A stretch of 64,000 nucleotides of DNA from a virus. Shown here piece by piece: positions 8,331-55,164 of this stretch. Each line of letters starts with the position of its first letter. Position 1 is the stretch's first letter. The notes beneath the pieces are model-generated. The model was not told the DNA's origin and searched no databases. It saw nothing but the letters and a program-made list of their open reading frames with translations. Both the position numbers and the translations under genes were made by a program. The stretch lies in the IMG/VR virus record IMGVR_UViG_3300021184_000001, positions 34,854-98,853 of that record. One strand, written 5' to 3'.

Positions 8331-9605
8331 ATGGCCACCATCACCCGTGAAGTCCCCATGGACTTGACCGCACTGCCGATCCAGCAGTGCCCGAAGTCGA
8401 ACATCTTCGCCCTCATCTACGGCGAGGGCGGCACCGGCAAAGGACAGTTCGCCCTGCGGCTGGCCCACCGCCTGACCGCCCCTCACGGGGGCATCATCGT
8501 CGCCATCGAAGCCGACGGCGACCGCATGCGCCACCACGCCCGCCGCCCCGACGGCAGTGGCTTCATCTGGCGGCCGATCAAGTTCCCCAAAGCCAATCCC
8601 GACCGGCTCACCAAGGTCGTGGGGGAGCTGGCCGACGCCGCTGCCGTGGCCACGGTCCCGATCGCGGTCATCGTCGACGGTGCAAGCCGCTTCTGGAACG
8701 ACCCGCACGGCTTCAAGGACCGCGCCGAAGAATACGGCGGCACCAACTCCAAGGGGCAGGCCAACCTCAAGGGGTGGGGTCCCGTCAAGGCCGAAGAGAA
8801 GGCCCTGTACATGAACTTGCAGCGGCTGAAAGCGTACGCGCACGTCATCATGTGCTTCGAGCAGACCCCCGAGTTCGTGAAACAGGAGCCGGTCGGCGTC
8901 AAGCTGGACGCCCGCAAGGGCATCACCCACGAGGCCGACTTCATTTTCCGCATGGAACGCCACCTCAAGCAGGAGGCCACCGCCCACGAGACGAACCTCA
9001 AGAAGGGCGCCGCCGACGTTCACCGCGCCATCGTGGAGAAGACCGCGCTGGTGAAGCTGCGGACGAAGGACGACGGCATGGTCGACTTCAAGTACCCGAT
9101 GCCGACCGGCACCGTCTTCGTCGACCCGGGTCCGGCCGTCGCTGACCTCATGCTGGCCGAGCTCGACGGCCTCGACAACACCGTCGAAGCTGAAACCAGC
9201 GCCTACCTTGAGCAGCTGCAGGGCGCCGACCAGCACGTGCTGCGCGAAGCGTGGCTGTGGGTCCGCGACGGCGCCTGGTGGCCTGAAGAGGTCAAGGAAA
9301 CCGTGAAGGCCGCCATCAACGCCCTCGCCACCGGCACCTCTGCACCCGCACCGGCCGCTGCGCCGACGGAAGAGATGCCATACGCGTGGGGTTCCCTCAC
9401 CATCAACTCCCGTGTCGAAGAATGGATAGACGCGGCCGAGAAGATCCTCGACGCCGAACGCGAAGAAGTGGAGAAATTCGAAACCCACGCCACCCTCCAC
9501 GAACGCCTCGACGACGTCATCGGATACGTCAAGAACCGTAAGGAAGAGCTCAACGTGGCCGAAGGCGTCGCCGGTAGCGGCCAACCACACCAGGACCCTG
9601 AATGA
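8331..9605 (+). CDS. AAA_24 / Sak4-like recombination ATPase
   Basis: IYGEGGTGK Walker A and VIVDG Walker B; lies between SSB and exonuclease. Confidence 0.7.
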   Translation: MATITREVPMDLTALPIQQCPKSNIFALIYGEGGTGKGQFALRLAHRLTAPHGGIIVAIEADGDRMRHHARRPDGSGFIWRPIKFPKANPDRLTKVVGELADAAAVATVPIAVIVDGASRFWNDPHGFKDRAEEYGGTNSKGQANLKGWGPVKAEEKALYMNLQRLKAYAHVIMCFEQTPEFVKQEPVGVKLDARKGITHEADFIFRMERHLKQEATAHETNLKKGAADVHRAIVEKTALVKLRTKDDGMVDFKYPMPTGTVFVDPGPAVADLMLAELDGLDNTVEAETSAYLEQLQGADQHVLREAWLWVRDGAWWPEEVKETVKAAINALATGTSAPAPAAAPTEEMPYAWGSLTINSRVEEWIDAAEKILDAEREEVEKFETHATLHERLDDVIGYVKNRKEELNVAEGVAGSGQPHQDPE

Positions 9606-10672
9606 TCAGCCGAGAGCACGCGGTGCGCCACGCCACGGAGGCGTGGCGCACCGCCTCGCGCCGCAACCGCGAGCACTACAACGACGGCAAGATTCACGCC
9701 TCGGCCCTGCACGAATGCCCGCGCCAAGTGCAGCTGCGGTACCGGCGCACCCCGGCCACCGACGAGATCGCCGTGCGCCTGAACCTCCGCGCCCAGATCG
9801 GGACGGCTATCCACGACTACTACCTGCCGCTGCTGGCCGAACAGTGGGCGGCCGACCCCGAGGTCGAGGACGTCGTCATCGACGACAAGGCACGCAGCAC
9901 CGAAGTGAGTGCCGGGCCCCTGGTCGCACATCCCGACCTGGTCGTCATGTTCACCGACGGCTCCCTCGCCATCGTCGAACTCAAGACCGGCGCGAAATAC
10001 ATTGTGAAAGCCGCCAAGAGCGGCGAGCCCAAACGCTCCCACCTCGACCAATGCCGCGTCGGCGGCCTCCTCGCTGAGGCCAACACCGGCTCGCCCATGC
10101 GCGGCTACTGGATCTACTACATCGACATCGAAGACCCCGAACACAACTGGGAGATGACCACCCGCGCCTGGACGGACGCGGAATTCCAAGCGGCCACCGC
10201 CCGGTTCGAGCACGGCCTGTCCCTCGCCGGGGACGAGGCCGCACCGCGCTGGTTCGGCAAGCACACCTCGGACGCGTTCGCACCGTACTCCCCGTGCATC
10301 TCCTGCGAGTTCAAATCCGGTTGCCTGGGAAAAGACAACGCCGACCCCCTCCGGGACGAGGCGGCAACCGAACTGGTCGAGGCCGGGGCGCGCTTCGGTA
10401 AGCAGCTGCGCGCCGCCGAAAACGACCTCATGGAGTTCCTGCGCCTGCGCGCGAACGTGGAGAAACCGAAGCGGGGCAAAGCCCACGTCATGGAGGTCAT
10501 CAACCACCTGGGCCTCGAACCGGGACCCTACGACGCGGGGGGCGCCGTACACGAACTGAAGTGGCGGAAGGGGTACGACAAAGACGACGGCAACGCATCA
10601 GCGAAAATACTACGATCACTCGGAAAAGACGTCCCGCAGACACACGTCGACGGGCACTACCGCATCGAATGA
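9602..10672 (+). CDS. Cas4-like PD-(D/E)XK exonuclease
   Basis: ASALHECPR, GTAIH, HPD...IVELKTG, Q, and C-terminal CxxCxFxxxC. Confidence 0.8.
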   Translation: MISREHAVRHATEAWRTASRRNREHYNDGKIHASALHECPRQVQLRYRRTPATDEIAVRLNLRAQIGTAIHDYYLPLLAEQWAADPEVEDVVIDDKARSTEVSAGPLVAHPDLVVMFTDGSLAIVELKTGAKYIVKAAKSGEPKRSHLDQCRVGGLLAEANTGSPMRGYWIYYIDIEDPEHNWEMTTRAWTDAEFQAATARFEHGLSLAGDEAAPRWFGKHTSDAFAPYSPCISCEFKSGCLGKDNADPLRDEAATELVEAGARFGKQLRAAENDLMEFLRLRANVEKPKRGKAHVMEVINHLGLEPGPYDAGGAVHELKWRKGYDKDDGNASAKILRSLGKDVPQTHVDGHYRIE

Positions 10673-12514: not shown

Positions 12515-14338
12515 TCACAGCGGCGCGTACATCACCAGGTCTTCAGGATTGGTGTAGCCGTGAACGAAGCCGGGATAGGCCCCCGACGAGGCCGACGGCT
12601 CATCACGCCAGCAATATGCGGCATAGGGTCCACGCCAGGTGCTATCAGCCACCGACAGCGTCCGGGTCACCCCTGCGACAGTCACGATGAAGGTCAGCTG
12701 GGACCCCTGCACGCGGACCGTCAAGTCGGCCCACGAGTCGGTCGGCAACGCCACCGTATTGCTTTCGGTGGCGATGGTGGTGAAACCGCCGTTGGTGAAC
12801 CGGCGGATGGAGATCTGCCGGAACGACGATGAGCTGCTCTGCGACGTCAGCCGCGCCATGTACCCGTCCTTGGCCAGATTCGTCGACCCGGTGGGGGTAG
12901 AGATGTCGCGGTCATCGGGGATGGCAAAAAAGATGCCGACCTCTTGGTTAGAAGTGATCACCGTGGCCGGTTCCCGGCGTACTCGCAACCGGATCTCATA
13001 GTCGGTGGCGTTCGGGATCGGGCAGATGGTACCCAGCAGCTGGTTGATCTCATTGCTGAGGATGTCGCCATTCCAGCCATACCGCATCGGAAACCAGCGC
13101 CCAGGCAGGTCCGAACGGGCGAATCCCCCGTTCCACAGCGTACGCACGTCATCGGTAACGTTCGTCAGCGAGCCGACCATGGCGGTGCGAGCGTCCAAAC
13201 CGGGAATAAGGGTCTGGCGGTAGTCGAGATCGCCGGTCTCCCCACGAGGTCCCCGCGCGTAGACGGGGTCCTGACTTTCGACCAGCCTGACGCCCAGCGT
13301 GTCGAAATTGTAGGTCGTCCAGTACTGCCGCGACGTCGTGCGTGCCATCACCTGAAGTCCGGCCCCGACCAGTTCAGTGATCCGGGCATCCGTCAGTGTG
13401 CCGTTCATGCCGTCGTCGCGGATCGCAGCGACCCAGGTCGCCCCGGACGCGACGATGCTGGCGACCGGCTGAATGCTCGTCGCCTGAGACTCCACGATGA
13501 GGTTGACCGAAGCGGTGATTCCCGCCGCCGTCACGATGGGAACCCACGCGCCCAACGGGGAGGGCGAGTCGTCGTCGAGGTACCCGGGGACGTTGATGAT
13601 GCACCAGTCCTGCGCGCCTGCATCCACCACGGCCTGCACGGTAGCGACAATCGTCGCCTCGATCTCATCGGGCGTAACCCCGCTACGGCCGACGCGCAGG
13701 TCCATGACCATCCGGCCCCGGATCAGTCGCAGCGTCTCCGACAGCTGGCGACCGCCATACTGGTTCTGGTAGAACCCGGCCCAGCCTCCATACGGGACTT
13801 GCAGTGCTGCGGGCGCATTGGAGTTGTCGCCGGTGGGGTTAACACGGGTTCCGGCGTCGTAGTTGATCGCGGTCATCGTCAGCGACGACGCCTGGCCCCA
13901 CGTTAGCGCACCCGGGTTGTCGCTGTAGGTGGTGATCGAGCTGCCCGCGCCTGCAATCGTCTCCAACGCGACGTTATCGGACCCGAGCACGACGGTGGTG
14001 GAATACGTGTCGATGTTGTTGCTGATGCAGTACTCGACAAGGTAGGGCGATGTGGAAGGGCCGACACCGATGCCGCCGCCGGTCGCGCCGATGGCCTGCG
14101 CTGGGAGCGTCGCCACCGTTCTAGGCCACGTCATCTCACCCGGGCCGGGCGACGTCGGCGAATAGAACCCTGAGTCGGAGCCGATCGATGCGATGTTGCC
14201 ACTATCGGTGGAGATCCGCAGCCCGATCTGGCGCGTGGTCTCGTTGAAGTCCAGGCCCAGGCCCAAGTTTCCGGCGATGCAGGTCATGATCGCATCGCAT
14301 GTGGTGGTCATGGCAGTGTTGCACCCGCAGCGGGCCAT
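12515..14338 (-). CDS. Minor tail / receptor-binding protein 2: MARCGC anchor + GDPD-like barrel + ConA-like domain
   Basis: 607 aa from ATG 14338 (TGATG overlap); clear paralogue of 14338-16197. Confidence 0.65.
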   Translation of the reverse strand: MARCGCNTAMTTTCDAIMTCIAGNLGLGLDFNETTRQIGLRISTDSGNIASIGSDSGFYSPTSPGPGEMTWPRTVATLPAQAIGATGGGIGVGPSTSPYLVEYCISNNIDTYSTTVVLGSDNVALETIAGAGSSITTYSDNPGALTWGQASSLTMTAINYDAGTRVNPTGDNSNAPAALQVPYGGWAGFYQNQYGGRQLSETLRLIRGRMVMDLRVGRSGVTPDEIEATIVATVQAVVDAGAQDWCIINVPGYLDDDSPSPLGAWVPIVTAAGITASVNLIVESQATSIQPVASIVASGATWVAAIRDDGMNGTLTDARITELVGAGLQVMARTTSRQYWTTYNFDTLGVRLVESQDPVYARGPRGETGDLDYRQTLIPGLDARTAMVGSLTNVTDDVRTLWNGGFARSDLPGRWFPMRYGWNGDILSNEINQLLGTICPIPNATDYEIRLRVRREPATVITSNQEVGIFFAIPDDRDISTPTGSTNLAKDGYMARLTSQSSSSSFRQISIRRFTNGGFTTIATESNTVALPTDSWADLTVRVQGSQLTFIVTVAGVTRTLSVADSTWRGPYAAYCWRDEPSASSGAYPGFVHGYTNPEDLVMYAPL

Positions 14339-16197
14339 CAGCTCAAGTCCTCCCACATCGGGAATCCGGTGGCGAATTCCTCGTAGGCGCTGTAGCCGTG
14401 GTTGAATCCGTCGTTCTGCGCCGGGGAGGTGTACGCGTCTTCCCACACATAGAAGGCGTACGGGCCACGGTGATCGGTGTCGTTGATGGTGCCGATGTCG
14501 TAGTCGATGTCTTGATGACCGACCGTGAGGCTGATGGAAGTCGTATCGACGGTGATGGCGAAATAGATCCAGCGGCCGTATTCCACGGTAGGAACGACAT
14601 CCGACGTCAACAATGCCGTGAAGTTGCCGTTGTTGAACTTGCCCATCACGACGCGGCCCCGGTTAGAGCTGCCGACGCGGATACTGAACCAATAGCCGTT
14701 GACCCATTCCGGAGCTTCGGCTGGTTCGAACCACGTGATGTCCTGGTCGGTGGGGGAGCAGAAGAAGACGCCCAGTTTCGGCTGCGTCCCGGCGGGGACG
14801 GGCTCGCTGGCGCTATCGACCCGGAACTTCAGGCGCAGTCGGAATTCGGAGGTGACCTGGTAGGGGCACAGCTCGCCCAACAGCTGAGAGTGCAAGTGCG
14901 CGCCGATGCCACCTTCCCAGCCGAAACGCTCGCTGAAGTTGCGCCCCTCAGCCGACTGCCGCGCCCACCCGATGCTCTGTGAGTCGGAGCCGTTGTTGGT
15001 GCCGTGGGTCAGCGCGCCTTCCATCATCGTGCGTGTAATCAGGCCCGGGATGACGATGGTCTTCCTATAGTCCAGGTCTCCGGCCTCTCCGCGTGCTCCT
15101 CGGCTGTAGACGGCGTTGTCGGAAGAGACCGCACGCGCGCCGATGGCGTACACCTGCTGCACATCCCATTGCCGAGACGACCGAACCTGGACGTACGCTT
15201 GCAGCCCAGCGTCGATGAACGTCTGGATGCGGTCGAGGCTCGTCCCTTGGTTGTTCTCATCGGATGCCATGCGCACCCACTGCGCTCCCGAGGCAACCAC
15301 ATCGGCGGGTGTGACCAGAAAACCACCGGAGTTGTCGTCGAACAGGTCGACAACCGGGGTGAGGCCCGCAGCGGCAATGTCGGCAACCCACGGCCCGAAG
15401 GGCGACGGAATCAGGTCATCGGTGCCGTCGTCCATGTAGCCAGGGACTCCCACGAACGTCCATTCCTGTGCCTGTGCCTGGACGACGGCACGGCCCGCTG
15501 CGGCGATGAATGCTTCGAGCTCGTCCTGGACGACTCCGGCGTACACCGCCAAGTAGACAACGCCGCGAGCCGCCACCTGATGCAACGCATCGACCAATGT
15601 GATCGGAGTGAAGTTACGGGCGTAGAAGCCGAACCAGCCTCCGTCAGGGCTCAGCAGTGCAGGGGGCGCTCCCGAGTTGCGCCCGGTGGGGGTGTTACGT
15701 GCACCTGCGTCTACCAGCAAGCTCGGCAACGTTACCGATGAAAGGGACTTGATGTCGATAGAGGAGGGATTGTCGGTGCGGCTGCTCAGGTTCGAGTTGG
15801 GTCCGTCCCAGCGAGCGATTGCCACACCGTCGGCGAGCGAGAAGGTCGAGATGTTCAGGATGTCGAGCCGGTTGGCGATGCCGTACTCCAGGCCATCGGG
15901 GGAACCGAATGGCACCATCGAGCCACCGCCGGTGGTACTGGCGCCGAACGCCCGGTCGGGAAGACCGGCAATCGTCCTACGACCCGACGCAGGGTCCGGG
16001 CTTGTTCCTGCACCCGGGACATAGATTCCCCCGTCCGAACCGAGGCTGGCACTGTTGCCCGCGTCGCCGGAGATGCGCACTGCCAGCAGCCCAGTGACGC
16101 TGTCATATCGCAAACCCGGACCGAGGTTCGCCGCCACACACAGCACGATCGCGTCGCACGTCGTCGCACTAGCGGCGTTGCAACCACATCTCGCCAC
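14338..16197 (-). CDS. Minor tail / receptor-binding protein 1: MARCGC anchor + GDPD-like barrel + ConA-like domain
   Basis: AFGASTTGGG..P...LEYGIANRLDILNIS..LADGVAI resembles a degenerate GDPD N-terminus; beta-rich C-terminus; distal tail position. Confidence 0.65.
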   Translation of the reverse strand: MARCGCNAASATTCDAIVLCVAANLGPGLRYDSVTGLLAVRISGDAGNSASLGSDGGIYVPGAGTSPDPASGRRTIAGLPDRAFGASTTGGGSMVPFGSPDGLEYGIANRLDILNISTFSLADGVAIARWDGPNSNLSSRTDNPSSIDIKSLSSVTLPSLLVDAGARNTPTGRNSGAPPALLSPDGGWFGFYARNFTPITLVDALHQVAARGVVYLAVYAGVVQDELEAFIAAAGRAVVQAQAQEWTFVGVPGYMDDGTDDLIPSPFGPWVADIAAAGLTPVVDLFDDNSGGFLVTPADVVASGAQWVRMASDENNQGTSLDRIQTFIDAGLQAYVQVRSSRQWDVQQVYAIGARAVSSDNAVYSRGARGEAGDLDYRKTIVIPGLITRTMMEGALTHGTNNGSDSQSIGWARQSAEGRNFSERFGWEGGIGAHLHSQLLGELCPYQVTSEFRLRLKFRVDSASEPVPAGTQPKLGVFFCSPTDQDITWFEPAEAPEWVNGYWFSIRVGSSNRGRVVMGKFNNGNFTALLTSDVVPTVEYGRWIYFAITVDTTSISLTVGHQDIDYDIGTINDTDHRGPYAFYVWEDAYTSPAQNDGFNHGYSAYEEFATGFPMWEDLS

Positions 16198-16369
16198 GAT
16201 TCCCCCAAAACGGTCAACTAGGACAAATACATCCTCTCACTGGTAGGGGAAATCATCCACGACCGGCACGAAATAGCCCAAAACCCTGACGGCTTCGCGG
16301 GGTGTAGATTTCTCATGTTCGCATCAACATTTATGTGATCATGTATTCACATGATCGGAAGGGTTCAGC

Positions 16370-17245
16370 ATGTCCTCCAACCTCTTTGTGCGCCCCCCTC
16401 GGGATGCCTTCCTCAACGGCAAGGGCGGCTCGGGCAAGACGTTCGGCGTCGTCCAGATCGCGCACGCCCTCGCCCGGCGCAACAAGCGCGTCCTCGTCGT
16501 CGAAGTCGACCCGCAGGACGACACCGCCGACCGCCTCGACGCCGGAGACCCCACGCGCCTGACCATGGCCGAAGTCCTCGACCCCCACAACCCTCGCCCC
16601 ATCACCGACGCCATCACCGCGTGCGGATGGGATGTCCCCGAAGCCCCCTACATCCACGTCGCGCAGGGCGGCTACATGCTCGAAGACCGACTCCACGAAA
16701 CCGACAGGCCCGGTTCGCAGTTCCGGCTGCGCCGCGCTCTCGACGCCCTTCCCGCCGACATGTACGACCACGTCCTGCTGAACGCCGACCCGAGCCTGGG
16801 CCACCTCGTGCAGAACTGCATCGCCGCGCTCGACGGCGCGCAAGACCGCGTCTGGATCACCGTCATCCCCGAACGCAACGAGATCAAGGGCGGCATGCGC
16901 ATGGCCACCTTCGTCTCCAACTTCCGCCAGCACCTGATGGTGCCGAACCTGAAGTTCGGTGGCGTCATCATCAACAAGGCCGACACGCGCCTGAAGCTCC
17001 ACAACCGGTACATCGACGAGATGCCAACCTCCTTCAAGGCGATCGACCAGGGCAACCCGGTGCCGGTGCTTCCCCACGTCATCCCCTTCCGCGCCCGACT
17101 GGCAGAGACCCAGTCGGAGAGCCTCCCGATCACCTCGTTCCGACCTTCCGAATGCGAAGGCGTTATCGAATCCATCGACGCACTCACCGACGTGGTCATC
17201 GCCCGTGGCATGGAAGAGCAGGAGGAAATCCTCAATGGCGCGTGA
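16370..17245 (+). CDS. parA: ParA/Soj partition ATPase
   Basis: NGKGGSGKT deviant Walker A, RVLVVEVDPQ, DHVLLNADP, GGVIINK. Confidence 0.9.
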   Translation: MSSNLFVRPPRDAFLNGKGGSGKTFGVVQIAHALARRNKRVLVVEVDPQDDTADRLDAGDPTRLTMAEVLDPHNPRPITDAITACGWDVPEAPYIHVAQGGYMLEDRLHETDRPGSQFRLRRALDALPADMYDHVLLNADPSLGHLVQNCIAALDGAQDRVWITVIPERNEIKGGMRMATFVSNFRQHLMVPNLKFGGVIINKADTRLKLHNRYIDEMPTSFKAIDQGNPVPVLPHVIPFRARLAETQSESLPITSFRPSECEGVIESIDALTDVVIARGMEEQEEILNGA

Positions 17246-17735
17246 CAACATGAACGTCCCTGCCCCACCGCCCCCGCAGATCCCTCCCATGTCGGCACCG
17301 ACCGACAGCGACGAGCCCACGGTTGTCGAGGTGCGACGCGAAGAACCCCAGGCACAAGACCAGCCGAAGAAGGACAAGAGGTCCGGTTCGTCCATTAGTG
17401 CACGCACGCGTGCACGCACGAACGGACAAACGTCAGAAAGCGCCGCTAAGAGCACAGCCGCTGAGATCATCGGCATGCTCGACAGCGTGCGTGCACACCA
17501 CGGTCACCCTCAGCTGGAACGTTCGAGCGTTAGCCACCGGTGGCCTGTGTGGGTCATCGAGACCATCGGAAAGAAGTCGCAGGTGGAGAAGCGACCGGCT
17601 GCCGACATCATCGCGGAAACGTTCAAGCGCGGTCTCGCGGGAGATCCCTATGCCGAGTACTACTACGGTGAAGCGTGTGAGCGTGTCAACGCCCGGGAGA
17701 ACGATTGGGGATCTGGTGAAGAGAACGACGATTGA
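17235..17735 (+). CDS. Putative centromere-binding partner (disordered N-terminus + RHH-like core)
   Basis: Overlaps parA stop; Pro-rich N-terminus; SVSHRWPVWVIETIGKKSQVEKRPAADIIAETFKRGL. Confidence 0.55.
   Translation: MARDNMNVPAPPPPQIPPMSAPTDSDEPTVVEVRREEPQAQDQPKKDKRSGSSISARTRARTNGQTSESAAKSTAAEIIGMLDSVRAHHGHPQLERSSVSHRWPVWVIETIGKKSQVEKRPAADIIAETFKRGLAGDPYAEYYYGEACERVNARENDWGSGEENDD
17398..17496. repeat. Three copies of GTGCACGCACG(C): two tandem, one inverted
   Basis: 17398-17409 and 17410-17421 direct; 17485-17496 reverse complement. Confidence 0.7.
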
Positions 17736-17862
17736 GCTCCCCGATCAACTCCACACGGACCTCAAGGTGATGGCGGCTGAGACCAAGCGCCCCATGAACG
17801 CCTTGATGGTCGAAGCGCTAGACGTGTTCGTGAAATCGAAGCGTCAAGAAAAGACCCCATAG
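17716..17862 (+). CDS. Ribbon-helix-helix protein (ParG/CopG/Arc-like)
   Basis: VKRTTIELPDQLHTDLKVMAAETKRPMNALMVEALDVF; RBS GGGGA. Confidence 0.75.
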   Translation: MKRTTIELPDQLHTDLKVMAAETKRPMNALMVEALDVFVKSKRQEKTP

Positions 17863-17873
17863 CAAGACCTTCA

Positions 17874-17907
17874 AACGGCCCCACCCGCTTTTTCGGGTGG
17901 GGCCGTT
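17874..17907. terminator. Hairpin terminator between par cassette and tail genes
   Basis: AACGGCCCCACCCG / CGGGTGGGGCCGTT, perfect 14-bp stem. Confidence 0.75.
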
Positions 17908-17911
17908 GGCG

Positions 17912-19129
17912 TTATGGTTCTACCCCCGTAACGTCCGACAGCGTCGACAGTTCCACAGCGACTTCTTCGCCTTCCTCAGTGTTGGCACCGGACGGTGTCC
18001 ACGTGACTTCCACACCGAGAAGACGCATGCCCTGTCGAATGGGCCTGCACAACCCTTCCTCGGCGAAGAAGTCGAAGCGCAAGCCCGGAACAAGTTCGGG
18101 CATCGTCAGCGGTGCCGACGGGGAGAGCTGGGCCGTGGTCGGCAGCAGGATCTCCGACGGGGGCGGGTTGCGTCCCCAGACAGCGCGTTTCGCCGATGAC
18201 AGCACGTCGCTTTCGTCGGCGTTGTTGTCCTGGACTCGGTTGAGCACGTCGATTCGGCCGTATCGTGTGCCGGTAACGCCGAAGTTCTGCGTGATGCCGG
18301 GCCAGTACTCGTTGGTTTCGGTGCCGCGAGGTTCGGTATCGTCCTCTTTCTGGGTGGTTGCCCAGCCTCTGGTGGCGGCTTCGTTGCCGTTCGATCGGGC
18401 TTCGGCCTCCCCGATGAGGTGCTGAGTGTTCAACCTGGCGTACGTCTGGTCCTGGGTGGTGCGTCGGCGTTGCAGGCGCAGGGACCGGTTGATAACGGTG
18501 AAGTCCAGCCCGTACGACTGTCCGAGGGTACGCAGGAGTTCCCCCACGGTGGCCACTTTCGGGCCCGGACGGTAGTTGATGGTGTCATCAGGGTCGGTGA
18601 CCGTCTCCACGACGATCTGCGGGAGGATGAGCGTGTCGTCCAGCGGGTTCGAAAACGGGACATCCAGCAGGTTGCGTTCGATAATGTCGTACGCGATTTG
18701 GGTGACTGGCATGTTGACGTAGTCGAGAGAGAAGTCGTTGACGGTATCTTCGAGGCGTTGGAAGATGTCGCGGGCGTTGATCTCTTTCACGGTGGAGCCG
18801 GTGGTCTCGATCGCCTGCATCACCTCCCCCTCCCAGACTTGGACGTCGTCCCTCCAGATCCGCAGTTGCGCCACGCGCACGGAGTTGGCAACGATGTCGA
18901 ACAGTCGGCAGCACTCAGGCGACGCCTGGTTGAAGTCGAGCGTGATGACCGCTTCAGAGAAGTTGCGTAGTCGCCGCGTCCATACGATCTGAGTGATGCC
19001 TTCGAGGACGCCGATGAACCGCATCTCCGGTACCGGCAGTGGGACGTCGTTGTTGTCGACGCGTTGCAGGAGGTAGACCTCGACGCGGTATTGACCGGCG
19101 CATCCCAGCAGTGGTGACAGCGACACCAT
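17912..19129 (-). CDS. Minor tail protein (Tal/hub-like)
   Basis: WTRRLRNFSEAVITL and LRIWRDDVQVWEGEV; second gene after tape measure; TGATG coupling. Confidence 0.7.
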   Translation of the reverse strand: MVSLSPLLGCAGQYRVEVYLLQRVDNNDVPLPVPEMRFIGVLEGITQIVWTRRLRNFSEAVITLDFNQASPECCRLFDIVANSVRVAQLRIWRDDVQVWEGEVMQAIETTGSTVKEINARDIFQRLEDTVNDFSLDYVNMPVTQIAYDIIERNLLDVPFSNPLDDTLILPQIVVETVTDPDDTINYRPGPKVATVGELLRTLGQSYGLDFTVINRSLRLQRRRTTQDQTYARLNTQHLIGEAEARSNGNEAATRGWATTQKEDDTEPRGTETNEYWPGITQNFGVTGTRYGRIDVLNRVQDNNADESDVLSSAKRAVWGRNPPPSEILLPTTAQLSPSAPLTMPELVPGLRFDFFAEEGLCRPIRQGMRLLGVEVTWTPSGANTEEGEEVAVELSTLSDVTGVEP

Positions 19130-20340
19130 CAGGCGGCTTCCCATCGGGTGTAGAGGGCGACTTCGACCTGCGCTTCGACATCGGCGCCGACGGCGGCGAG
19201 CACCTCGACGCAGAGGCCGTAGCCGCACGAGAACGTCGGCCACGAAAACGTGCGTCCGCCCGGTCCGTACAGGGCCGGGACGTCTACGTCACCGCCGAGG
19301 CAGACGGTTTGGGCGCGTGAGACGCGACCGTCGATGACCGTCTCGCCCCCTGAGGGGATGTACAAGACGGTGATGTCGGTGCAGGCCATGCAGGGGTCGA
19401 CCGCGATCAGGTCGGTGCAGTCCAACCCGAGCGGATTCTGGTAGAACCTGATGGTGACGTTGCGCAGGTCAGCGCCCCCGGCGCGAATGCGGATGACCGG
19501 TACGAGCTCCAACCATGAGGGAACGCTCATGCCCTCGACCGAGGCGATCTGGTGGTACGCCTCGAAGTCATCGACGGGATAGCATGCGTCCAGGGGAGCT
19601 TCAGGCACTTCGGGGATGACCGGTCGCGGGCACTCGGGATCGGTCGCGCACGGTGTGACGGTTCCGCAGTTCTCGTAGGCTTCCAGCAGGTTGACGATGG
19701 TGCGTTCAGCGTTGGCGGCGTTGAACAGCAACTGGATTTCCGCGTCCTGGAACAGACCGACGTTGCGGCTGCGCATGACGAACTCGACCTCCCAGAACGT
19801 CACGAGGCCTGACCGCCAGATCGACACGACGTGGGGACGCTCCAAGGCCGAAACGTCGACGAGGGTGCGCACAGGGTCGGGTGATCTGTCCGTTGGGCAT
19901 GCCACGGCCACGCACATTTGACCGCCGATACATGAACCGGTGGGGCAATACGATCCCGTGAGGGCCATCGACAGCCACGCAAGCCCGTACGACACCGCTG
20001 CTTCTGAGCGCCCGGCGAGGATGACGTGCATGGTCATGTCGCGGACGATGACGCCGTCGACGATCTCGGATGGATGCATCCACAGGCCCTCGATGTCGAC
20101 GCCTCCGACGCCGAGGAAGTCGGCCGACACCGGTACCGCCGGGTCGTACCAGGGGGCCGCGTCGGCCTGGGGGGAGATGAAGGGAGGATCGGAGACTTCG
20201 GCGACGAGTTCGGGGCACGGCACGCAGATGGTGACCGCCCCGGGATCGCACGGACTGTGCGCAAGGTAGGCGGCGAGGCGTGCGGAGTTGATGACCTCGG
20301 TGCCGTCGAAGGCCATCCATCCGGCGCGATCGGTTATCAT
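19129..20340 (-). CDS. Distal tail (Dit-like) protein, Cys-rich
   Basis: Immediately after tape measure; 17 Cys in 403 aa. Confidence 0.65.
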   Translation of the reverse strand: MITDRAGWMAFDGTEVINSARLAAYLAHSPCDPGAVTICVPCPELVAEVSDPPFISPQADAAPWYDPAVPVSADFLGVGGVDIEGLWMHPSEIVDGVIVRDMTMHVILAGRSEAAVSYGLAWLSMALTGSYCPTGSCIGGQMCVAVACPTDRSPDPVRTLVDVSALERPHVVSIWRSGLVTFWEVEFVMRSRNVGLFQDAEIQLLFNAANAERTIVNLLEAYENCGTVTPCATDPECPRPVIPEVPEAPLDACYPVDDFEAYHQIASVEGMSVPSWLELVPVIRIRAGGADLRNVTIRFYQNPLGLDCTDLIAVDPCMACTDITVLYIPSGGETVIDGRVSRAQTVCLGGDVDVPALYGPGGRTFSWPTFSCGYGLCVEVLAAVGADVEAQVEVALYTRWEAA

Positions 20341-23300
20341 GAGATTCGCTCCAGTCCCCGGCCGCCCATGCGGCGCTCGATGATCCGCAGGGCTCGACGT
20401 GCGACTTGCTCGGGATCGGCGTTTTGGGAGTGGACGTGCATCTCACCCACGACAGGACCAGCAGGTGCGCTGCTGGTAGACATTCCGGCAAGGGCGCCTT
20501 GGGAGGCGAGTAGGTCGATGAGGCCCGACTGCTGGGCGAGTTCGGCGGCGCGCTGGGGCCGCGTGAGGGGGATGACGACTTCTCGGCCCGCTTCGCCGAT
20601 GAGTGCGGCGGTAGGTCCGTTGACAATGCCGCCGTTGGCGAATGGGTTGAGGTCGATGTCGCCGAGGTTCTGGGCGGTGTTGATGGCGTCCTGGACGAAG
20701 CCGACGATCGAGTCGACGACGCCGCTGATGGTGTCGCGGGCGCTGCGCAGCCCGTCGAGCATGTTGTCGAAGACGTCACTGATCGTGTCGCCCATGTCAC
20801 TGAAGAAATCGCTGATGTTGCCCGCCGCGTCGGAGACCACATCGACCACGGTCTCGATCAGGCTCTCCATGAGGTCGAACCGGTTCTTCCACAGATTCCA
20901 GAGCGTAGTTACGGCGTCACGGATAGTGCCGAATTTGCTGGTCACACCGCTGCTGAGCCGACCGATCCACTCGATCAACGGCTCGATCGCGGTCTCCCAG
21001 AACAGCTTGAGGATCGCGGCGCTCTGCTCGAACCACGGGATGACGTGATCCGCGAGGATGTCGGCCAAGAACCCGAAGGCGGCGGTCAACGGCACCAGCG
21101 CGACGTTGATGATCGCGCCGATGATCTCGGCCAGAAATTCGATTACGGGCGTGAGCAGGCTGGCGATCAGCGTGATCAGCGTGGTGATCGGCTGCAGGAT
21201 CGCCGAGAACAGCTCCAGCAGCGGGGCAAGGACGAGTCCGACCAGCTGCAAAACCGGACTAAGTGCCTCAATAATGGGCAAAAGCAGAGAAATGACCGGA
21301 ACAAGCAGCGAGCCGATCACATTGACCAATTGGAAGAAAATCTCAATAATTGGTGTCAAAACGGGCAAAAGCGCCTCGATGATCGGCATCAGGGCGTCCG
21401 CAAGTGCAACGACGAGCTGCAAGATCGGCGGCAGCAGGGTCGCGATAACGCTTGCCAGCCCCGCACCCAGGGCCTCGATCACGGGCGCGAGGGCCTCGAC
21501 CAGCCTGGTGAACAAATCGGCGATAAGTGGCAAAACGGGCGCAAGGGCGCCTGCGAGCGCCTGCACGATCGGCATGATCGCGCTTGCCAGCACGGAGAGG
21601 ATCTGTGCGCCGAGAGTGATGACGATGCCGATCAACTCGCCGATCACAGGGAGTATTGGTGCGATAGCAGTCAGTACTGCCCCGATGGCTTCGCCGAGGG
21701 GGGCGAGGGAGGGGGCGATGGCCTCGGCGGCGGCAGCGATCCCGGCGAAGATCTCGACGACGCCGGGGCCAAGGGCCAGGAGAGCCTGCCCGAGCCCTTC
21801 GAGGACGACTGACAGGCTGGGGCCCAGGGCCTCGGCGATCAGCCCGATGATGGGCAAGACGAGGCCGAGCTGGGTCACCAGGGTGGCGAAGACGGGTGCC
21901 AAGGCCTGCACGGTGGTGCCGATGGCCGCGAACACGTTCGCGAGAGCCGCTTGCCCCTCGAACGATTCGAAGGTGGTGCGGACGACTTCAAGCGCTTCGC
22001 CGATGGCACCCAACGCGTCGACACCGGCGAGCTCGGCAGCCGAGAACACTGCCTGGAAGATGCCAGCGAGGTTGGCGATAATGCCTCCCAGCTGCTGGAA
22101 CACCTGGATGGCGAAGTCGAATGCCTCCATGGCCTGCCCCGAGGCCACGACCTCCTGAGTCCACGCCTGGAACTGCGCGCCGAGCCCGGCGATAGGACCG
22201 GCTGCTTCGGCGATCCGGGGCAGGAAGGTGTCGGCCAGGAGGCGCATCCCCTCCAGGAAGGGCACCGTGGACGCTGCAAGCGCGTCGAAGATGGTCGCCA
22301 GCGTCGCGAACGTGGTGGTGACAGTGCCAGCAGTGGCACTCTGGGCGAGGAACTCGCCGATCCTTGCGACGATCCCCCCGAAGGAGGCGGCAGCGAGGTT
22401 CAAACCCTCGCTGAGTGGGCCGAGGAGGTTGTCGGCGACGGCAGTGATGGTGCCTGCAAGCTGCGAGAACAGTGCTTCCTGCGCGCCCAGGCGCATGTTG
22501 GTGAGCGCGGGGGCAATGGCCTGGAACTCGCGGGCTACGGCCTGGGCTGCTGGGGCGAGACCTTCGAGCGCCTCCTCGAAGGCGGCCGTGTCCTCGAAGG
22601 CCGCGCCGATGGCGGCGCCGAAGCCGTTGAAGGCGATGGCGACGGTTGCGACACCGGCGCCGACGAGGTTAAGCACCGCCGGGAGTGCGAACAGGGCGCC
22701 TGAGAGCGACTCCAGAAGTCCCACCACGACCAGGGCCTGGGCCCCCATGGAGATCATCTCGCTGGTGGCGCTGGACAAGATTCCAGCCAGCGCCTGCAGG
22801 GGCCGCAGCGAGATAGAGGCGAGCGCGGTGCTCAGACCGCGCAGCCCGGTGGTCAGGCCCCGGGTCATGGCCGATCCGAAGCGCGCGCCGATGCTCTGTC
22901 CGCGCCGCTGGGTCTCCTCCTCGGCCCCGTCGCCGACACCGCGCCCGAACAGCTGCCCGATGCCCTGCCCGATGCGTGCCCAGGGGATGAGGTTGAAGGC
23001 ACGCTGGACGCTTTGCGCAGCGGGGCCGAACGCGCGGGTGGCCGCTGCTTGGATACGCGGGCCCGCGCGGTTGATTGCCTGCGTGATGTTGTTGACGGCC
23101 GTCGTGCCCGCCAGGCGCAGCCGTACCAGGCCGCGCCCGAACGCGTCGCTGGCACGGACACCGAACGCCTGGAACAGCGCCGGAAGGCGACCCAGGGCAC
23201 GTCCGATGGGGCTTTCCAGGACGCCGGTGATCAGCGCGCCGATGCCCGCCATGCGCTGGAAGAACGCTTCGCGAGCCATGTCCCCGGCGGCGCGGAACAG

Positions 23301-24125
23301 CGCCGGGAGCCTGCCGAGCGCTCGGCCGACGGGGCTTTCGATGAAATTGGTGATCCCGGCGCCGATACCGGCCATGCTTTGGAAGAACGACTCACGGGCC
23401 ATGTCCCCGGCGGCGCGGAAGAGCTGCCCGATGCGCGTGGCGGCGCGCCCGATGGGCCCTTCGATAACGTTCATGATGCCCGCGCCGATACCGGCCATGC
23501 GCTGGAAGAACGCTTCGCGGGCGAGGTCGCCAGCGGCGCGGAACAGTGCCGGGATGCGACCTAGTGCCTGACCGACGGGGCTGTTGATGAAGTTGGTGAT
23601 GGCCGCTCCGATGCCTGCCATCTGGCTGAAGAAGGCGTTGCGGGCTGCGGTTCCAGCGGCGGCGAACAGGGGCGCGAGCCGCGACAGCGTGGCGTTCAGT
23701 GCGCGGCCGAAAAGGTTCCCGATCAAAGTGCGCAGCGGGTTGACCACGGCGTTCTGGAACGCGGTGACGATGCCCCGGCCGCCCTCCACGAAGGCGACGC
23801 GCAAGCCCCGCGAAACCAGCTGGGCCGCGCCCTGCAGCCCTTGGGCGATGGCGAGGTTGAGGAAGCCGAGGATCTGGATGCCGCGCAGTCCGCGCCGCAG
23901 GGCGGTGCGCAGTCCGTCGGTGAAGGAGACGCCTCCTTGCTGCCCGGCGCGCCGCAGTCCACCGGTGAATTGGTTGCCGATGTTCTGGTTGAAGGCGTTG
24001 GTGAACTGCTGGGCGGCTTGAGCACCGATTTGGCTGAACGCGCCGCGCAGTTGCCGCCGCAGGTTGGAGAGGAAGCGGCTGGTGTCGGCGACAACGCGGA
24101 CTTCCGCAGTCGCAATTACTGCCAT
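20337..24125 (-). CDS. Tape measure protein
   Basis: 1262 aa, Ala/Gly/Leu-rich amphipathic repeats; AVIATAEVRVVADTS start; C-terminal FANGGIV...GEAGREVVIPL. Confidence 0.92.
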   Translation of the reverse strand: MAVIATAEVRVVADTSRFLSNLRRQLRGAFSQIGAQAAQQFTNAFNQNIGNQFTGGLRRAGQQGGVSFTDGLRTALRRGLRGIQILGFLNLAIAQGLQGAAQLVSRGLRVAFVEGGRGIVTAFQNAVVNPLRTLIGNLFGRALNATLSRLAPLFAAAGTAARNAFFSQMAGIGAAITNFINSPVGQALGRIPALFRAAGDLAREAFFQRMAGIGAGIMNVIEGPIGRAATRIGQLFRAAGDMARESFFQSMAGIGAGITNFIESPVGRALGRLPALFRAAGDMAREAFFQRMAGIGALITGVLESPIGRALGRLPALFQAFGVRASDAFGRGLVRLRLAGTTAVNNITQAINRAGPRIQAAATRAFGPAAQSVQRAFNLIPWARIGQGIGQLFGRGVGDGAEEETQRRGQSIGARFGSAMTRGLTTGLRGLSTALASISLRPLQALAGILSSATSEMISMGAQALVVVGLLESLSGALFALPAVLNLVGAGVATVAIAFNGFGAAIGAAFEDTAAFEEALEGLAPAAQAVAREFQAIAPALTNMRLGAQEALFSQLAGTITAVADNLLGPLSEGLNLAAASFGGIVARIGEFLAQSATAGTVTTTFATLATIFDALAASTVPFLEGMRLLADTFLPRIAEAAGPIAGLGAQFQAWTQEVVASGQAMEAFDFAIQVFQQLGGIIANLAGIFQAVFSAAELAGVDALGAIGEALEVVRTTFESFEGQAALANVFAAIGTTVQALAPVFATLVTQLGLVLPIIGLIAEALGPSLSVVLEGLGQALLALGPGVVEIFAGIAAAAEAIAPSLAPLGEAIGAVLTAIAPILPVIGELIGIVITLGAQILSVLASAIMPIVQALAGALAPVLPLIADLFTRLVEALAPVIEALGAGLASVIATLLPPILQLVVALADALMPIIEALLPVLTPIIEIFFQLVNVIGSLLVPVISLLLPIIEALSPVLQLVGLVLAPLLELFSAILQPITTLITLIASLLTPVIEFLAEIIGAIINVALVPLTAAFGFLADILADHVIPWFEQSAAILKLFWETAIEPLIEWIGRLSSGVTSKFGTIRDAVTTLWNLWKNRFDLMESLIETVVDVVSDAAGNISDFFSDMGDTISDVFDNMLDGLRSARDTISGVVDSIVGFVQDAINTAQNLGDIDLNPFANGGIVNGPTAALIGEAGREVVIPLTRPQRAAELAQQSGLIDLLASQGALAGMSTSSAPAGPVVGEMHVHSQNADPEQVARRALRIIERRMGGRGLERIS
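23160..23700 (-). repeat. 123-bp (41-aa) tandem repeats in tape measure, about 4.5 copies
   Basis: TC(C/G)CC(G/A)GCGGCGCGGAA anchors at 23281, 23404, 23527. Confidence 0.85.
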
Positions 24126-25276: not shown

Positions 25277-25287
25277 GTTTCGGTGTG

Positions 25288-25770
25288 TCACGGCCCCGGC
25301 CCGATGTTCCGCACCCCCGAACCGGGCGTAATCACCCACCGCTGCCGCCCCGACGTCCCCCGGATGAGCCCACGCAGCATGAACGGGTTCGCCGGTTGCC
25401 CCTTCACCGACCGCCGATACAGCAGCGCCCCATCCCGCTTGCCCTCGAACCGTAGGAACCGCTTCGTCTTCGGCGTGATCGGACGCCCGCGCCTGCCGTA
25501 GATCCCAGTCCCCGTCTGAACCCACAGCGCCGCCTCGTCGAAGTTCATCACGCGGCCCATGACATACCGGAACGGGCGCACGCGCAGACTGAATCCGTAG
25601 CTGGCCTTCATATCGCCGTCCTGCACCGGGGTCTGCTGCACACACATCGCTCGCACTCGCTGCGATGTCAGCACCACCAACGACGCCACTTCGCCCTGCG
25701 GGGAGTTCAGCAGCCGGTTGGCTTCGGCCATGTTGATGTCGACGCGCGTCACGCGCATCCGGATGACCAT
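25288..25770 (-). CDS. HK97 gp10-like tail completion protein
   Basis: TPVQDGDMKAS, WVQTGTG, ITPKTKRFLRF, VKGQPANPFM. Confidence 0.75.
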   Translation of the reverse strand: MVIRMRVTRVDINMAEANRLLNSPQGEVASLVVLTSQRVRAMCVQQTPVQDGDMKASYGFSLRVRPFRYVMGRVMNFDEAALWVQTGTGIYGRRGRPITPKTKRFLRFEGKRDGALLYRRSVKGQPANPFMLRGLIRGTSGRQRWVITPGSGVRNIGPGP

Positions 25771-26435
25771 TAACCGCCTCCGGCTGGCCGTGAAACGAAG
25801 ACCTCCTCCGCAGGCTCGTTGCGCCAGGTGACTACAGCAGTCTGGCCCGTCGGATCGTCAGGATCGGCATCGACACCGGCCACCAGCTGCGCGACGGGCT
25901 CTTCGGCGACGAGCGGAGCGTTGACGACGAGCGTCAAGATCGAACCGGCACAGCCTCCCGTGGGACCCAGCGGCAGGATCTGCGCCGCGATCACCGAGAT
26001 GGGCAGCTCGAAAGACACCGGCGTGGGCGGCTCACCGGCCAGCGGCCAGCAGCAAAGCACCTGCGCCAGCGTCGCGCGGTCAGCGGCGAGCAGATCCCGG
26101 TCGGCGTCGTAGGCCGCAGGTGCCGGGGCGTTCCCGTTCTCGTCGGGGATGGCGGTGATACAGCGGTAGATGCCCAGCTCGATCTGCGCCTGCCAGGAAC
26201 TCGCGCACGGGAGCCCACCGAACGTGAGGTCTTCGGGGTCGATCTCGATCGCCTGCGAGATGCGACGCACCCACACTTGGCCATTCTCTCCGGCAGTGTT
26301 CGCTTGGCACCGGTCGCCGACCGGCGGCACGTCACCACCGAAGTGATGGCACTCGCAGGCTGGACGCCCTTCGGTACGCAGCATCGAGCACAGGCACGAC
26401 AGCAGCTCGTTTTCGAGGTAGTCAAGGACGTTCAC
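25770..26435 (-). CDS. Putative tail terminator / neck protein, Cys-rich
   Basis: GTG start overlapping upstream stop; IELGIYRC; neck position. Confidence 0.55.
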   Translation of the reverse strand: MNVLDYLENELLSCLCSMLRTEGRPACECHHFGGDVPPVGDRCQANTAGENGQVWVRRISQAIEIDPEDLTFGGLPCASSWQAQIELGIYRCITAIPDENGNAPAPAAYDADRDLLAADRATLAQVLCCWPLAGEPPTPVSFELPISVIAAQILPLGPTGGCAGSILTLVVNAPLVAEEPVAQLVAGVDADPDDPTGQTAVVTWRNEPAEEVFVSRPAGGG

Positions 26436-26656
26436 GCGACGTCCCCCCTGGCGCGATGCACGATGAAGCGCACCGTCCCGATACCCACCAGCAGCAGCGG
26501 CCATGCCAGCGCGTACAGCAGAGCGAAGCCGACGCCCATGGCCAGCCGCGCGGAAGTGGTGACGTCAAATCCACTGGCGACGGCGTTGCGGTAGAGCATG
26601 CGTGCGGTGAATAGCATGGCAACGACGTAGACCACGCTCACGATCAGCGGGATCAT
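26432..26656 (-). CDS. Small two-TM membrane protein
   Basis: 74 aa, two hydrophobic helices, overlaps both neighbours. Confidence 0.6.
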   Translation of the reverse strand: MIPLIVSVVYVVAMLFTARMLYRNAVASGFDVTTSARLAMGVGFALLYALAWPLLLVGIGTVRFIVHRARGDVA

Positions 26657-27450
26657 GGCGTCACCGGTCCGGTGCGCCAGACCTGCGAGGTGTCGACGTC
26701 AGGCGACCACACGGACGGGTTCGAGGTGACGCCATACGGGTTGATCGAAGCGATCCATCGATCGACCCGGGCGATCCCGGTGAAGTGAATGATGCCGTCC
26801 TCTCCGGACCCGATGGTCGAATCCAGCTGCATGCTCAAGCCTTCACGGTTGATGCTGGTGACACCGGAAGGCAGCGTGCCGCACCCGCTGCCAGCTGGTG
26901 GGCATTCTTGGAGCTTGCGGCAGGCGAGGATGCTGACGGCACGGATGGCGTCCAGGCCTGGCGGGGTACCGCGCAGGTAGGTGACGACGAGACCATCCTC
27001 AGTGCAGTAGTCCTGGCACGCGGGCCAGCAGCCGCCGCAGCGGGCGAGACGGTTGCGCGTCAGCAGCTTCCACTCATCGCTGTCCAGGGCGACACCGTCG
27101 ACGGTGACCGACTCGATCGAGTAGACCGGCCCCTGCAGGGTTACGGTGCACAGCTGCGTACACGAGCAGGTGTCGCGGCATCCGCATTTGGAGTTGAACC
27201 AGGAGCCATTGACGTCCCGGTAGGGTCGCATCCAGTACGCCTCCAGCGGACGCGCCACACACTGGTCCAGACAGGGCAGTTCGGTGGTGCGGCACAGGCC
27301 GATCACCCCGGCGACCGCACGCCAGAGCTCGACCGTGGCCAGCCACTGGGCCTCGAAATGGGCCTCGTCCCAATCGTCTTCGTCTGGAGGCCACCCGGGG
27401 CAGCAGACGGGATCGATCGGCCACGGGTCGCACGGGTACAACGCTGACAT
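26653..27450 (-). CDS. Head-to-tail adaptor, Cys-rich
   Basis: LWRAVAG, VTLQGPVYSIESVTVDG, GVTSINREGLSM; 18 Cys in 265 aa. Confidence 0.7.
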   Translation of the reverse strand: MSALYPCDPWPIDPVCCPGWPPDEDDWDEAHFEAQWLATVELWRAVAGVIGLCRTTELPCLDQCVARPLEAYWMRPYRDVNGSWFNSKCGCRDTCSCTQLCTVTLQGPVYSIESVTVDGVALDSDEWKLLTRNRLARCGGCWPACQDYCTEDGLVVTYLRGTPPGLDAIRAVSILACRKLQECPPAGSGCGTLPSGVTSINREGLSMQLDSTIGSGEDGIIHFTGIARVDRWIASINPYGVTSNPSVWSPDVDTSQVWRTGPVTP

Positions 27451-29754: not shown

Positions 29755-30108
29755 CTATTCGGTGATGGGCTGCGGCATGGTCCAGCCGGTAGACGGCTGA
29801 ACGAGGTAGAGCACTACGGCCTGCTCGGCGTCGGGCATGTAGCCGTAAACCGTTTCGTCCTCTACCGGTTCACCACCGAGAGCGGCTGGTATTTCGATCT
29901 CCAGAACGGTTTCGGTATCGGTGTTGCTGTGCGAGGCGAGGAAATATCCACGCTCGGCATCGGCCGTGGCATTGACGTAGAACCCGTAGTTCCCGCCGTT
30001 CTTGAGCCGGATCTTGAACGGCTTGGGTCCGCGCCGCCAGCTCACGATCGGCACCGGAAGGGTGGTGGGACCGTCAAGCTCGACGCGTCCAGTCCGCATT
30101 GGTGTCAT
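29755..30108 (-). CDS. Hypothetical beta-rich virion-associated protein
   Basis: 117 aa between FN3 genes; RBS AGGAG. Confidence 0.6.
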   Translation of the reverse strand: MTPMRTGRVELDGPTTLPVPIVSWRRGPKPFKIRLKNGGNYGFYVNATADAERGYFLASHSNTDTETVLEIEIPAALGGEPVEDETVYGYMPDAEQAVVLYLVQPSTGWTMPQPITE

Positions 30109-30116
30109 GGCTGCTC

Positions 30117-52620: not shown

Positions 52621-52742
52621 ATGCTCACAATGCATTGTCGACAACCGGGCTAACATGAACGCGCCGCAGATGCTACGCTGGCACACGCGAAGAATGAAGA
52701 CACACAGGGTTGGGAGCCACCGTCTCGGCTAACCCAACCCAC

Positions 52743-52775
52743 ACAGCCCGGGGAGACCTCCGTCCCCCGGGCTGT
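52743..52775 (+). other. Hairpin in 5' leader of second DUF6879 gene
   Basis: ACAGCCCGGGG / CCCCGGGCTGT, 11-bp stem. Confidence 0.5.
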
Positions 52776-52802
52776 CCCATGCCCACGGGAAGGAACACTT
52801 CG

Positions 52803-54861: not shown

Positions 54862-54931
54862 GCATTCCTCACGTGCTACCATCATGATCTCGAAAAATTT
54901 CATGACCCCCCCTATCTTTTAAGGGGGTGTC

Positions 54932-55164
54932 GTCCACTGTGGACGGATCGGCCCTCCTTTGTAGTCTGTCGATTTTGGATTGATCCTGTGTGGACTGTCG
55001 TGTGTGGACGCATGATCTTCGCTCATTCCTGTGTGGACGTCCTTTGTGGACGCTGGCGTGTCTCTTGTGGGTTCGTCCTGTGTGGAATTGGTGAGCGTCG
55101 CTTGTGGATTATGCGCATTGGCGCGCTGGCACTAGCCGCGCGGTTAGCTACCTCTCATGTGGAC
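54932..55164 (+). repeat. Array of TGTGGA(C/T/A) motifs, DnaA-box/iteron-like
   Basis: Copies at 54938, 54989, 55003, 55032, 55045, 55081, 55103, 55158 (variant at 55066); TCCTGTGTGGA at 54984, 55027, 55076; GTCCAC-T-GTGGAC palindrome 54932-54944. Confidence 0.85.

Follow-up and report, generated by a model that had tools for sequence, protein, structure and literature searches.

A ParA cassette in the tail module of a 138-kb phage genome and its possible role in type Ib-like partition

The cassette and its three products

We analyzed a 64,000-nucleotide stretch of viral DNA (the window, bases 34854-98853 of the 138,035-bp IMG/VR viral record IMGVR_UViG_3300021184_000001, which is classed as linear) that carries a three-gene cassette encoding a ParA-type ATPase and two small proteins, designated ORF2 and ORF3. 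The cassette lies on the + strand and is flanked on both sides by - strand tail genes. The complete record, consisting of the window and the pieces L004-L007, is referred to as G000, and a 142,477-bp relative as G001; all of the sequences are metagenomic. An earlier note on this DNA, made from its letters alone, had described a self-contained + strand unit among tail genes, made up of parA, a second gene, a gene for a 48-residue ribbon-helix-helix (RHH) protein and a hairpin, and the analysis of open reading frames, families and repeats bears this description out. In window coordinates, the unit comprises the following features.

16370-17245, + strand: parA, encoding a 291-residue Walker-type ParA ATPase
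17235-17735, + strand, ATG start: ORF2, 166 residues, of no known family
17716-17862, + strand, GTG start: ORF3, a 48-residue RHH protein, overlapping the stop of ORF2
17874-17907, no strand assigned: hairpin with a perfect 14-bp stem and a 6-nt loop, where the cassette and the minor tail gene converge

The start of ORF2 overlaps the stop codon of parA (17243-17245) and is preceded by an AGGAGG 8 nt upstream, an arrangement that points to translational coupling. Each of the three genes evolves under purifying selection (dN/dS of 0.12-0.28 for parA, 0.23-0.30 for ORF2 and 0.05-0.37 for ORF3). The hairpin that closes the unit shows stem-preserving compensatory changes among relatives and is a probable bidirectional terminator. 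Consensus promoter and terminator scans of positions 16000-18100 called nothing, and the terminator scan missed this hairpin because it lacks a T tract.

ParA matches Pfam AAA_31 (1.9e-18) and CbiA (1.7e-17), phrog_164, annotated as "ParA-like partition protein" (1.1e-31), and, over part of its length, NCBIfam ParA_partition. A deviant Walker A motif (NGKGGSGKT) occupies residues 16-24. The AAA_31 and CbiA matches span residues 13-254 and no helix-turn-helix (HTH) family is matched, so that an N-terminal HTH is absent. Among solved structures, those closest to it are of a ParA family protein (8ray), Soj and ParF. The nearest plasmid-encoded proteins, at 30-38% identity, come from actinobacterial plasmids (Clavibacter, Streptomyces, Arthrobacter, Cellulomonas and Leifsonia), and identity to mycobacteriophage ParA is at most 28% (Adler). 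The gene is the sole ParA/CbiA match in the genome, and its sequence places the product with the type Ib-like ParA proteins, which are small, of the Walker type and devoid of an HTH.

ORF3 can be identified as an RHH protein from several converging lines of evidence. Its own family matches are weak (Pfam Antitox_RHH at 3e-4 and a PHROG Arc-like family at 2e-6), and a profile search finds a CopG-family RHH structure (9kkd, E = 0.005). The AlphaFold2 (AF2) model has a mean predicted local distance difference test (pLDDT) score of 89.8, and its best 50 Foldseek matches are all RHH proteins, among them CopA (template modeling (TM) score of 0.88), ParG, CopG and omega. Finally, a homologue with 41% identity on the related contig L016 passes the Pfam cut-offs for FitA-like_RHH and Arc. 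The protein is probably the cassette repressor, or else a second DNA-binding component.

The middle gene is more elusive. ORF2 matches no family in Pfam, PHROGs or NCBIfam and, in profile searches, no PDB sequence, and an exhaustive search of 1.84 billion representatives returned three true relatives. Three further proteins (P0013-P0015) that gave long matches in the representative search were dismissed as repetitive artifacts. The family is thus tiny, and a ParA always adjoins it. In the AF2 model residues 1-60 are disordered, a long helix spans residues 65-88 and, after an extended segment, a confident helical domain follows at residues 105-155 (C-domain pLDDT 76-90). The disordered N-terminal half carries a conserved NLNVPxPPP start and a basic SARTRARTNGQ motif. 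Foldseek finds nothing significant for the model (E > 2), and the weak list consists mostly of RHH proteins (Arc, ParD, CopA and AmrZ). The ESM Atlas neighbors of residues 96-152 belong to RHH_1, RH3_dom and Antitox_RHH clusters (TM scores of 0.44-0.52), and a wide VIA-align search gives weak, generic helical matches (best Z of 5.6). These models weakly suggest that the C-terminal domain (residues ∼96-155) may be RHH-like, an assignment that stays unproven. A profile comparison of ORF2 with ORF3 shows no similarity. The earlier note had spoken of two RHH partners for ParA, a description that holds clearly for ORF3 and only tentatively for ORF2, and it is more likely that the two proteins divide the labor, as adaptor and regulator, than that both partner ParA. 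We propose ORF2 as a centromere-binding adaptor of the ParG/ParB kind. Prediction of a ParA-ORF2 complex scored 0.02, which is evidence in neither direction.

Conserved slot, exchanged ParA and candidate cis elements

The cassette occupies the same tail slot in every related metagenomic contig recovered, in either orientation, and the pairing of ParA with ORF2 is kept in all of these relatives, even where ORF2 identity falls to 25-31%. Metagenomic contigs whose ParA is 78-83% identical carry the same three genes in that slot. More diverged versions retain the layout with altered components. On one contig (L015:6485-8068) ParA is 27% identical and ORF2 still 52%, and a 60-residue gene upstream replaces ORF3; on another (L016:6232-7579) ParA is alike in the Walker A region only, ORF2 and ORF3 are 31 and 41% identical, respectively, and the cassette runs in the same direction as the tail genes. 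A further version, again in the same slot and on the strand opposite the tail genes, is found on a 4050-bp contig from a "Bacillota bacterium" metagenome-assembled genome (L035, JAJYSZ010000170.1), which carries, in addition to a minor tail gene and a small gene, genes for a ParA-like protein (Walker A KAKGGVAS), an ORF2-like protein and a tail protein starting with MARCGCN; this is probably a mis-binned phage contig. On a short contig with a ParA of 48% identity, an HTH_31 gene stands before parA and an ORF2-like gene after it. The third small gene encodes an RHH protein where it is ORF3-like and an HTH protein on the short contig.

Given that the slot is the same across relatives, the ParA and ORF2-like pair with its third small gene is an old and stable part of this lineage and not a recent insertion. 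The description of the cassette as "inserted" in the tail operon was in this respect misleading, the slot being ancestral. Within it, ORF2 has persisted through at least two exchanges of ParA, and its extreme N terminus differs wherever ParA differs, a pattern that fits a modular adaptor whose N-terminal peptide contacts ParA.

Conservation at the nucleotide level draws attention to the following segments.

16198-16369, no strand: intergenic spacer between the start of a - strand tail gene (16197) and parA
∼16310-16369, no strand: conserved block with three (T)CATGT boxes (16313, 16339 and 16349)
16338-16357, no strand: inverted repeat GATCATG-N6-CATGATC, just upstream of the parA ribosome-binding site
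17376-17435, no strand: constrained 60-nt element within ORF2, containing a tandem of two copies of GTGCACGCACGC (17398-17420)
54930-55225, + strand: array of TGTGGAC-type repeats in the same direction, in a low-GC, largely non-coding stretch

In a seven-sequence alignment the proportion of all-identical columns is 0.73 at 16320-16379, compared with 0.28-0.45 farther upstream, and the block before parA is a candidate promoter/operator. In one relative (L012) both arms have changed and the inverted repeat is preserved (GATTATG..CATAATC). As an RNA hairpin the repeat was discarded as a candidate, its stability being no better than that of shuffled sequences (z of 0.01), which makes an operator the better reading.

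The second conserved segment lies inside a coding sequence. The 11-mer GTGCACGCACG has three copies in the 138 kb, all of them in ORF2: two form the tandem at 17398-17420 and the third, inverted and less conserved, is at 17486-17496. Over ORF2 codons 48-67, which span the tandem, dS is 0-0.13, compared with 0.4-1.9 for the N-terminal part in the same pairs and 0.15-1.5 for the C-terminal domain (0.46-1.5 against three more distant relatives). Among degenerate codons for invariant amino acids, 10 of 12 within the element are identical in six relatives, whereas elsewhere in ORF2 the figure is 8 of 41 (Fisher p = 1e-4). Such frozen synonymous sites indicate constraint at the level of the nucleotides. 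The element also has a predicted RNA fold (dG of -25.9, z of -3.9), one pair of which is broken by an uncompensated substitution in one relative, although this is thin evidence. We regard the element as a candidate protein-binding DNA site (parS or operator) or RNA hairpin.

The repeat array near 54.9 kb to which the earlier note had drawn attention does exist: TGTGGAC occurs six times within 54938-55158, compared with 28 times in the whole 138 kb. At 37 kb from the cassette, it may serve the same element as an origin of replication or a remote centromere, its link to the cassette being conjectural.

The tail genes on either side of the cassette are these.

17912-19243, - strand: minor tail protein (match to phrog_837)
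19129-20340, - strand: protein matching phrog_838
20337-24125, - strand: tape measure protein, 1262 residues
14338-16197 and 12515-14446, - strand: two paralogous tail proteins of ∼620-640 residues starting with MARCGCN, beyond the cassette

The antisense cassette and its bidirectional-looking hairpin split this series of - strand tail genes. The MARCGCN paralogues downstream probably need a promoter of their own, located in the divergent spacer that they share with parA. Within the tape measure gene, a 123-nt (41-residue) repeat is present in 3.7 copies of 73% identity at 23171-23621.

Circular maps, phage lifestyle and competing explanations

CheckV estimates completeness at 97% for G000 and 100% for G001, and the two genomes are collinear, at 86% nucleotide identity, over 12.9 kb around the cassette. 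G001 has an exact terminal overlap of 123 bp, as is typical of a circular assembly. The ends of G000 sit ∼33 bp apart within G001, and the junction formed by joining them aligns continuously there. From the abutting ends of G000 and the 123-bp closure of G001 it follows that both maps are circular and without flanking host DNA. The only DNA run found to hold the cassette is a soil metagenome, probably its source; no RNA sequencing runs were listed for it, and a nucleotide search of the cassette against a phage collection gave no match.

The absence of an integrase and of a ParBc-type ParB, remarked on earlier for the 64 kb of the window, extends in domain searches to the entire 138-kb record. 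The Phage_integrase, Resolvase and Recombinase domains (PF00589, PF00239 and PF07508) are absent from G000, the first two are also absent from the complete G001, and ParB_N (PF02195) has no match in G000. A full virion and packaging set is present: a large terminase (TerL), tape measure and minor tail proteins, and portal, head and capsid homologues of genes on pSITFR-21c. TerL is 37-45% identical to terminases on ∼40 Streptomyces plasmids, mostly of 85-105 kb, and 12 virion genes are common to G000 and pSITFR-21c, a circular 103.5-kb plasmid of Streptomyces sp. ITFR-21 (NZ_CP134608.1; L029 and L030) that is a phage by gene content. That plasmid has ParB-like genes, and its tail slot is without a ParA. 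The virion module is thus distantly related to that of circular Streptomyces phage-plasmids. A 401-residue protein with HTH_31 and tetratricopeptide repeat (TPR) domains (L005:9910-11115, G000 29910-31115) matches the NsdA family of Streptomyces regulators at 250 bits, which hints at a Streptomyces-like host; it could be a phage-carried regulator of host development.

Other genes bear on replication and on the encounter with the host. RecD2-like (G000 19541-21835) and UvrD-like (G000 25282-26961) helicases and a single-stranded DNA-binding protein (SSB) are encoded, and an AAA_24 protein is paired with a PD-(D/E)XK protein at 8331-10672 of the window. Among almost all of the non-structural proteins of at least 140 residues, Pfam scans recognized no DNA polymerase, primase or DnaB. 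The iteron-like TGTGGAC array and an HTH_36 protein are only candidates for replication initiation. Nine tRNA genes are accompanied by genes for RtcB, an RNA ligase (E = 2.5e-119), and for a nucleotidyltransferase of the RlaP family (L007:13684-14853 and L004:7079-7972), and this RNA-repair pair may, together with the tRNAs, counter host defenses that cleave tRNA. Two DUF6879-family proteins are also encoded, one at window positions 52710-53486 and one elsewhere in the genome (E = 5e-34 and 1.5e-33).

We favor, with no more than moderate confidence, a reading of the cassette as a type Ib-like partition module serving a plasmid prophage, in which ORF2 would be the adaptor and centromere binder and ORF3 the regulator. 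The phage would be a temperate siphophage of ∼138 kb with a filamentous actinomycete host, and given that it has no integration machinery, its prophage would persist as a low-copy circular plasmid. ParA would bind ATP, dimerize and coat the nucleoid; ORF2 dimers would grip a site on the phage DNA through the RHH-like C-terminal domain, and the disordered N-terminal half would touch ParA and stimulate its ATPase activity, so that sister prophage copies would be pushed apart, into hyphal compartments or spores. A dimer of ORF3 would repress the cassette promoter, with the inverted repeat at 16338-16357 as the candidate operator. The cassette forms a transcription unit of its own on the strand opposite the late tail genes, with a hairpin at its end, and so could be expressed while those genes are silent. 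In this scheme we infer lysogeny, the plasmid state, the pairing of protein with site and the contact between ParA and ORF2. The earlier note had likewise read the element as a low-copy phage-plasmid, and this is in part supported, namely by ParA with small RHH-type proteins, the lack of an integrase and of ParB_N, the circular map and the kinship with plasmid-borne phages of Streptomyces; the temperate or plasmid state itself stays conjectural, all copies being metagenomic.

Several observations weigh against a partition role in a plasmid prophage. Headful-packaged virion DNA, including that of a virulent phage, would give a circular map just as well. No relatives of ORF2 turned up among 185,579 species-representative genomes or, by tblastn, in PLSDB, and since every copy is metagenomic, with no match in an isolate genome or plasmid, no lysogen or episome has been seen. 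No repressor or immunity module and no replication initiator of a Rep family was identified, and nine tRNAs with RtcB/RlaP are more typical of large virulent phages. At the cassette itself, the RHH matches of ORF2 fall short of significance, and its sequence is not similar to that of ORF3; no multi-repeat centromere stands beside the genes, a k-mer search having given three-copy motifs only; and the element within ORF2 could be an RNA hairpin instead of a DNA site.

The main rival reading, which we consider less likely, is that the phage is virulent or in a carrier state, and that the module positions or spreads replicating genomes (or other cargo) along multigenomic hyphae with no stable plasmid prophage. 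The size of the genome, its tRNAs and RNA-repair pair, the RecD2 and UvrD helicases, the missing repressor and Rep, and the confinement of the family to metagenomes, never isolate genomes or plasmids, are all in keeping with it, as is the co-orientation of the L016 cassette with its tail genes. In the window and in most relatives, however, the cassette lies on the strand opposite the late genes and has its own conserved upstream block and terminator, which suits expression outside the late phase. A 138-kb virulent phage with no recognized DNA polymerase or primase would also be unusual, and the virion module is akin to those of plasmid-borne Streptomyces phages.

A more elaborate arrangement, which we consider unlikely, would retain the plasmid state and make the cassette a three-component machine. 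ORF3 would then be the centromere binder, ORF2 a lineage-specific adaptor seated on ORF3 or on DNA, with a swappable N-terminal peptide to engage any ParA that the phage had acquired, and the centromere would lie within 17376-17435, giving a bacterial-virus analogue of the archaeal AspA-ParB-ParA system in what would be an unrecognized group of ∼140-kb actinomycete phage-plasmids.

We think it rather improbable that the cassette has nothing to do with DNA partition and is instead a moron, in which a ParA-like ATPase and two small regulators act in defense or exclusion, in the manner of a toxin-antitoxin (TA) pair, or in control of the tail-fiber genes. The weak family matches of ORF3 are mostly to antitoxin-type RHH proteins, the cassette and the tail paralogue starting at 16197 diverge from a common intergenic region, and a classical centromere array was not found, all of which would suit such a role. 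The antitoxin-like matches have no toxin to go with them, however: none of Pfam, PHROG, NCBIfam and PADLOC assigns ORF2 to a toxin family, and ORF3 is followed directly by the terminator, which leaves no recognized TA pair in the cassette. PADLOC gave no meaningful match, the nearest relatives of ParA are plasmid partition ATPases, and the layout of ORF2 resembles that of type Ib centromere binders (PMC3074162). Chromosomal integration of the prophage by an unrecognized recombinase or by transposition, with ParA serving another purpose, could hide among the many large proteins without a family (e.g. those of 581, 417, 358 and 354 residues), but is very improbable, with no Phage_integrase, Resolvase or Recombinase domain in G000, no Phage_integrase or Resolvase in G001, which is closed by its direct terminal repeat (DTR), and no host DNA on either circular map.

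Should partition in a plasmid prophage be borne out, the extrachromosomal prophages would gain a whole lineage of ∼140-kb phages from soil, infecting filamentous actinomycetes and using a different partition chemistry, namely no ParB_N, a new family of centromere binders and an extra RHH gene. The apparent exchange of ParA around a constant adaptor and the candidate cis element within a coding sequence offer testable ideas on how partition modules evolve, and the cassette could act as a compact stabilizer for actinomycete vectors. If the phage is virulent, it would be an unusual case too, that of a lytic phage with a mycelial host and a ParA system.

Comparison with known partition systems

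The closest parallels are with type Ib systems such as pCXC100 ParA/ParB, TP228 ParF/ParG and pSM19035 delta/omega. As in these, a small Walker-type ParA without an HTH is followed by a coupled gene for a small protein that has, in the case of ORF2 by prediction, a flexible N-terminal half and an RHH-like domain at the C terminus, and the model of ORF3 superposes on ParG, omega and CopG. The ParB of pCXC100 from Leifsonia xyli is instructive, in that it had no sequence similarity to any DNA-binding motif and only its structure revealed an RHH fold (PMC3074162); the RHH-like domain proposed for ORF2 is likewise not detected by sequence searches. No sequence similarity is detectable between ORF2 and ParG, omega or pCXC100 ParB. 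On the Clavibacter plasmid pCM2L, a 129-residue gene after ParA encodes a protein with the same disordered N-terminal half and RHH-like C-terminal end. Unlike type Ib systems, the cassette has a separate 48-residue RHH gene as a constant part of the unit, its best cis candidate is inside the coding sequence of ORF2, and it is placed within a phage tail module. Whereas pCXC100 has nine 9-nt repeats (PMC3074162), no array of many contiguous repeats adjoins parA here.

Among actinobacteriophages, those that carry par cassettes and no integrase replicate extrachromosomally, and the extrachromosomal prophages described are almost only cluster A mycobacteriophages and the singleton pZL12 (PMC7157519). 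The present phage is like the integrase-less ones (PMC7157519) in having a ParA-based cassette in place of integration, presumably expressed apart from the virion genes. It differs from them in its genome, which at 138 kb is unrelated in sequence, and in the slot of the cassette, between minor tail genes and tail-fiber-like paralogues. In integrase-less actinobacteriophages the par systems rely on large ParB_N/HTH-type ParB proteins, whereas here there is no ParB_N and there are two small proteins instead.

The archaeal pNOB8 segrosome, AspA-ParB-ParA, consists of a small site-specific DNA binder, an adaptor whose N terminus contacts ParA, and a Walker-type ParA. The two systems are alike in having three genes; they differ in fold (winged HTH for AspA and RHH for ORF3) and in gene order, and are not known to be homologous. 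What is new in the cassette relative to known systems is therefore the family of the binder, the constant third RHH gene, the exchangeable ParA, the element within a coding sequence and the location in a tail module.

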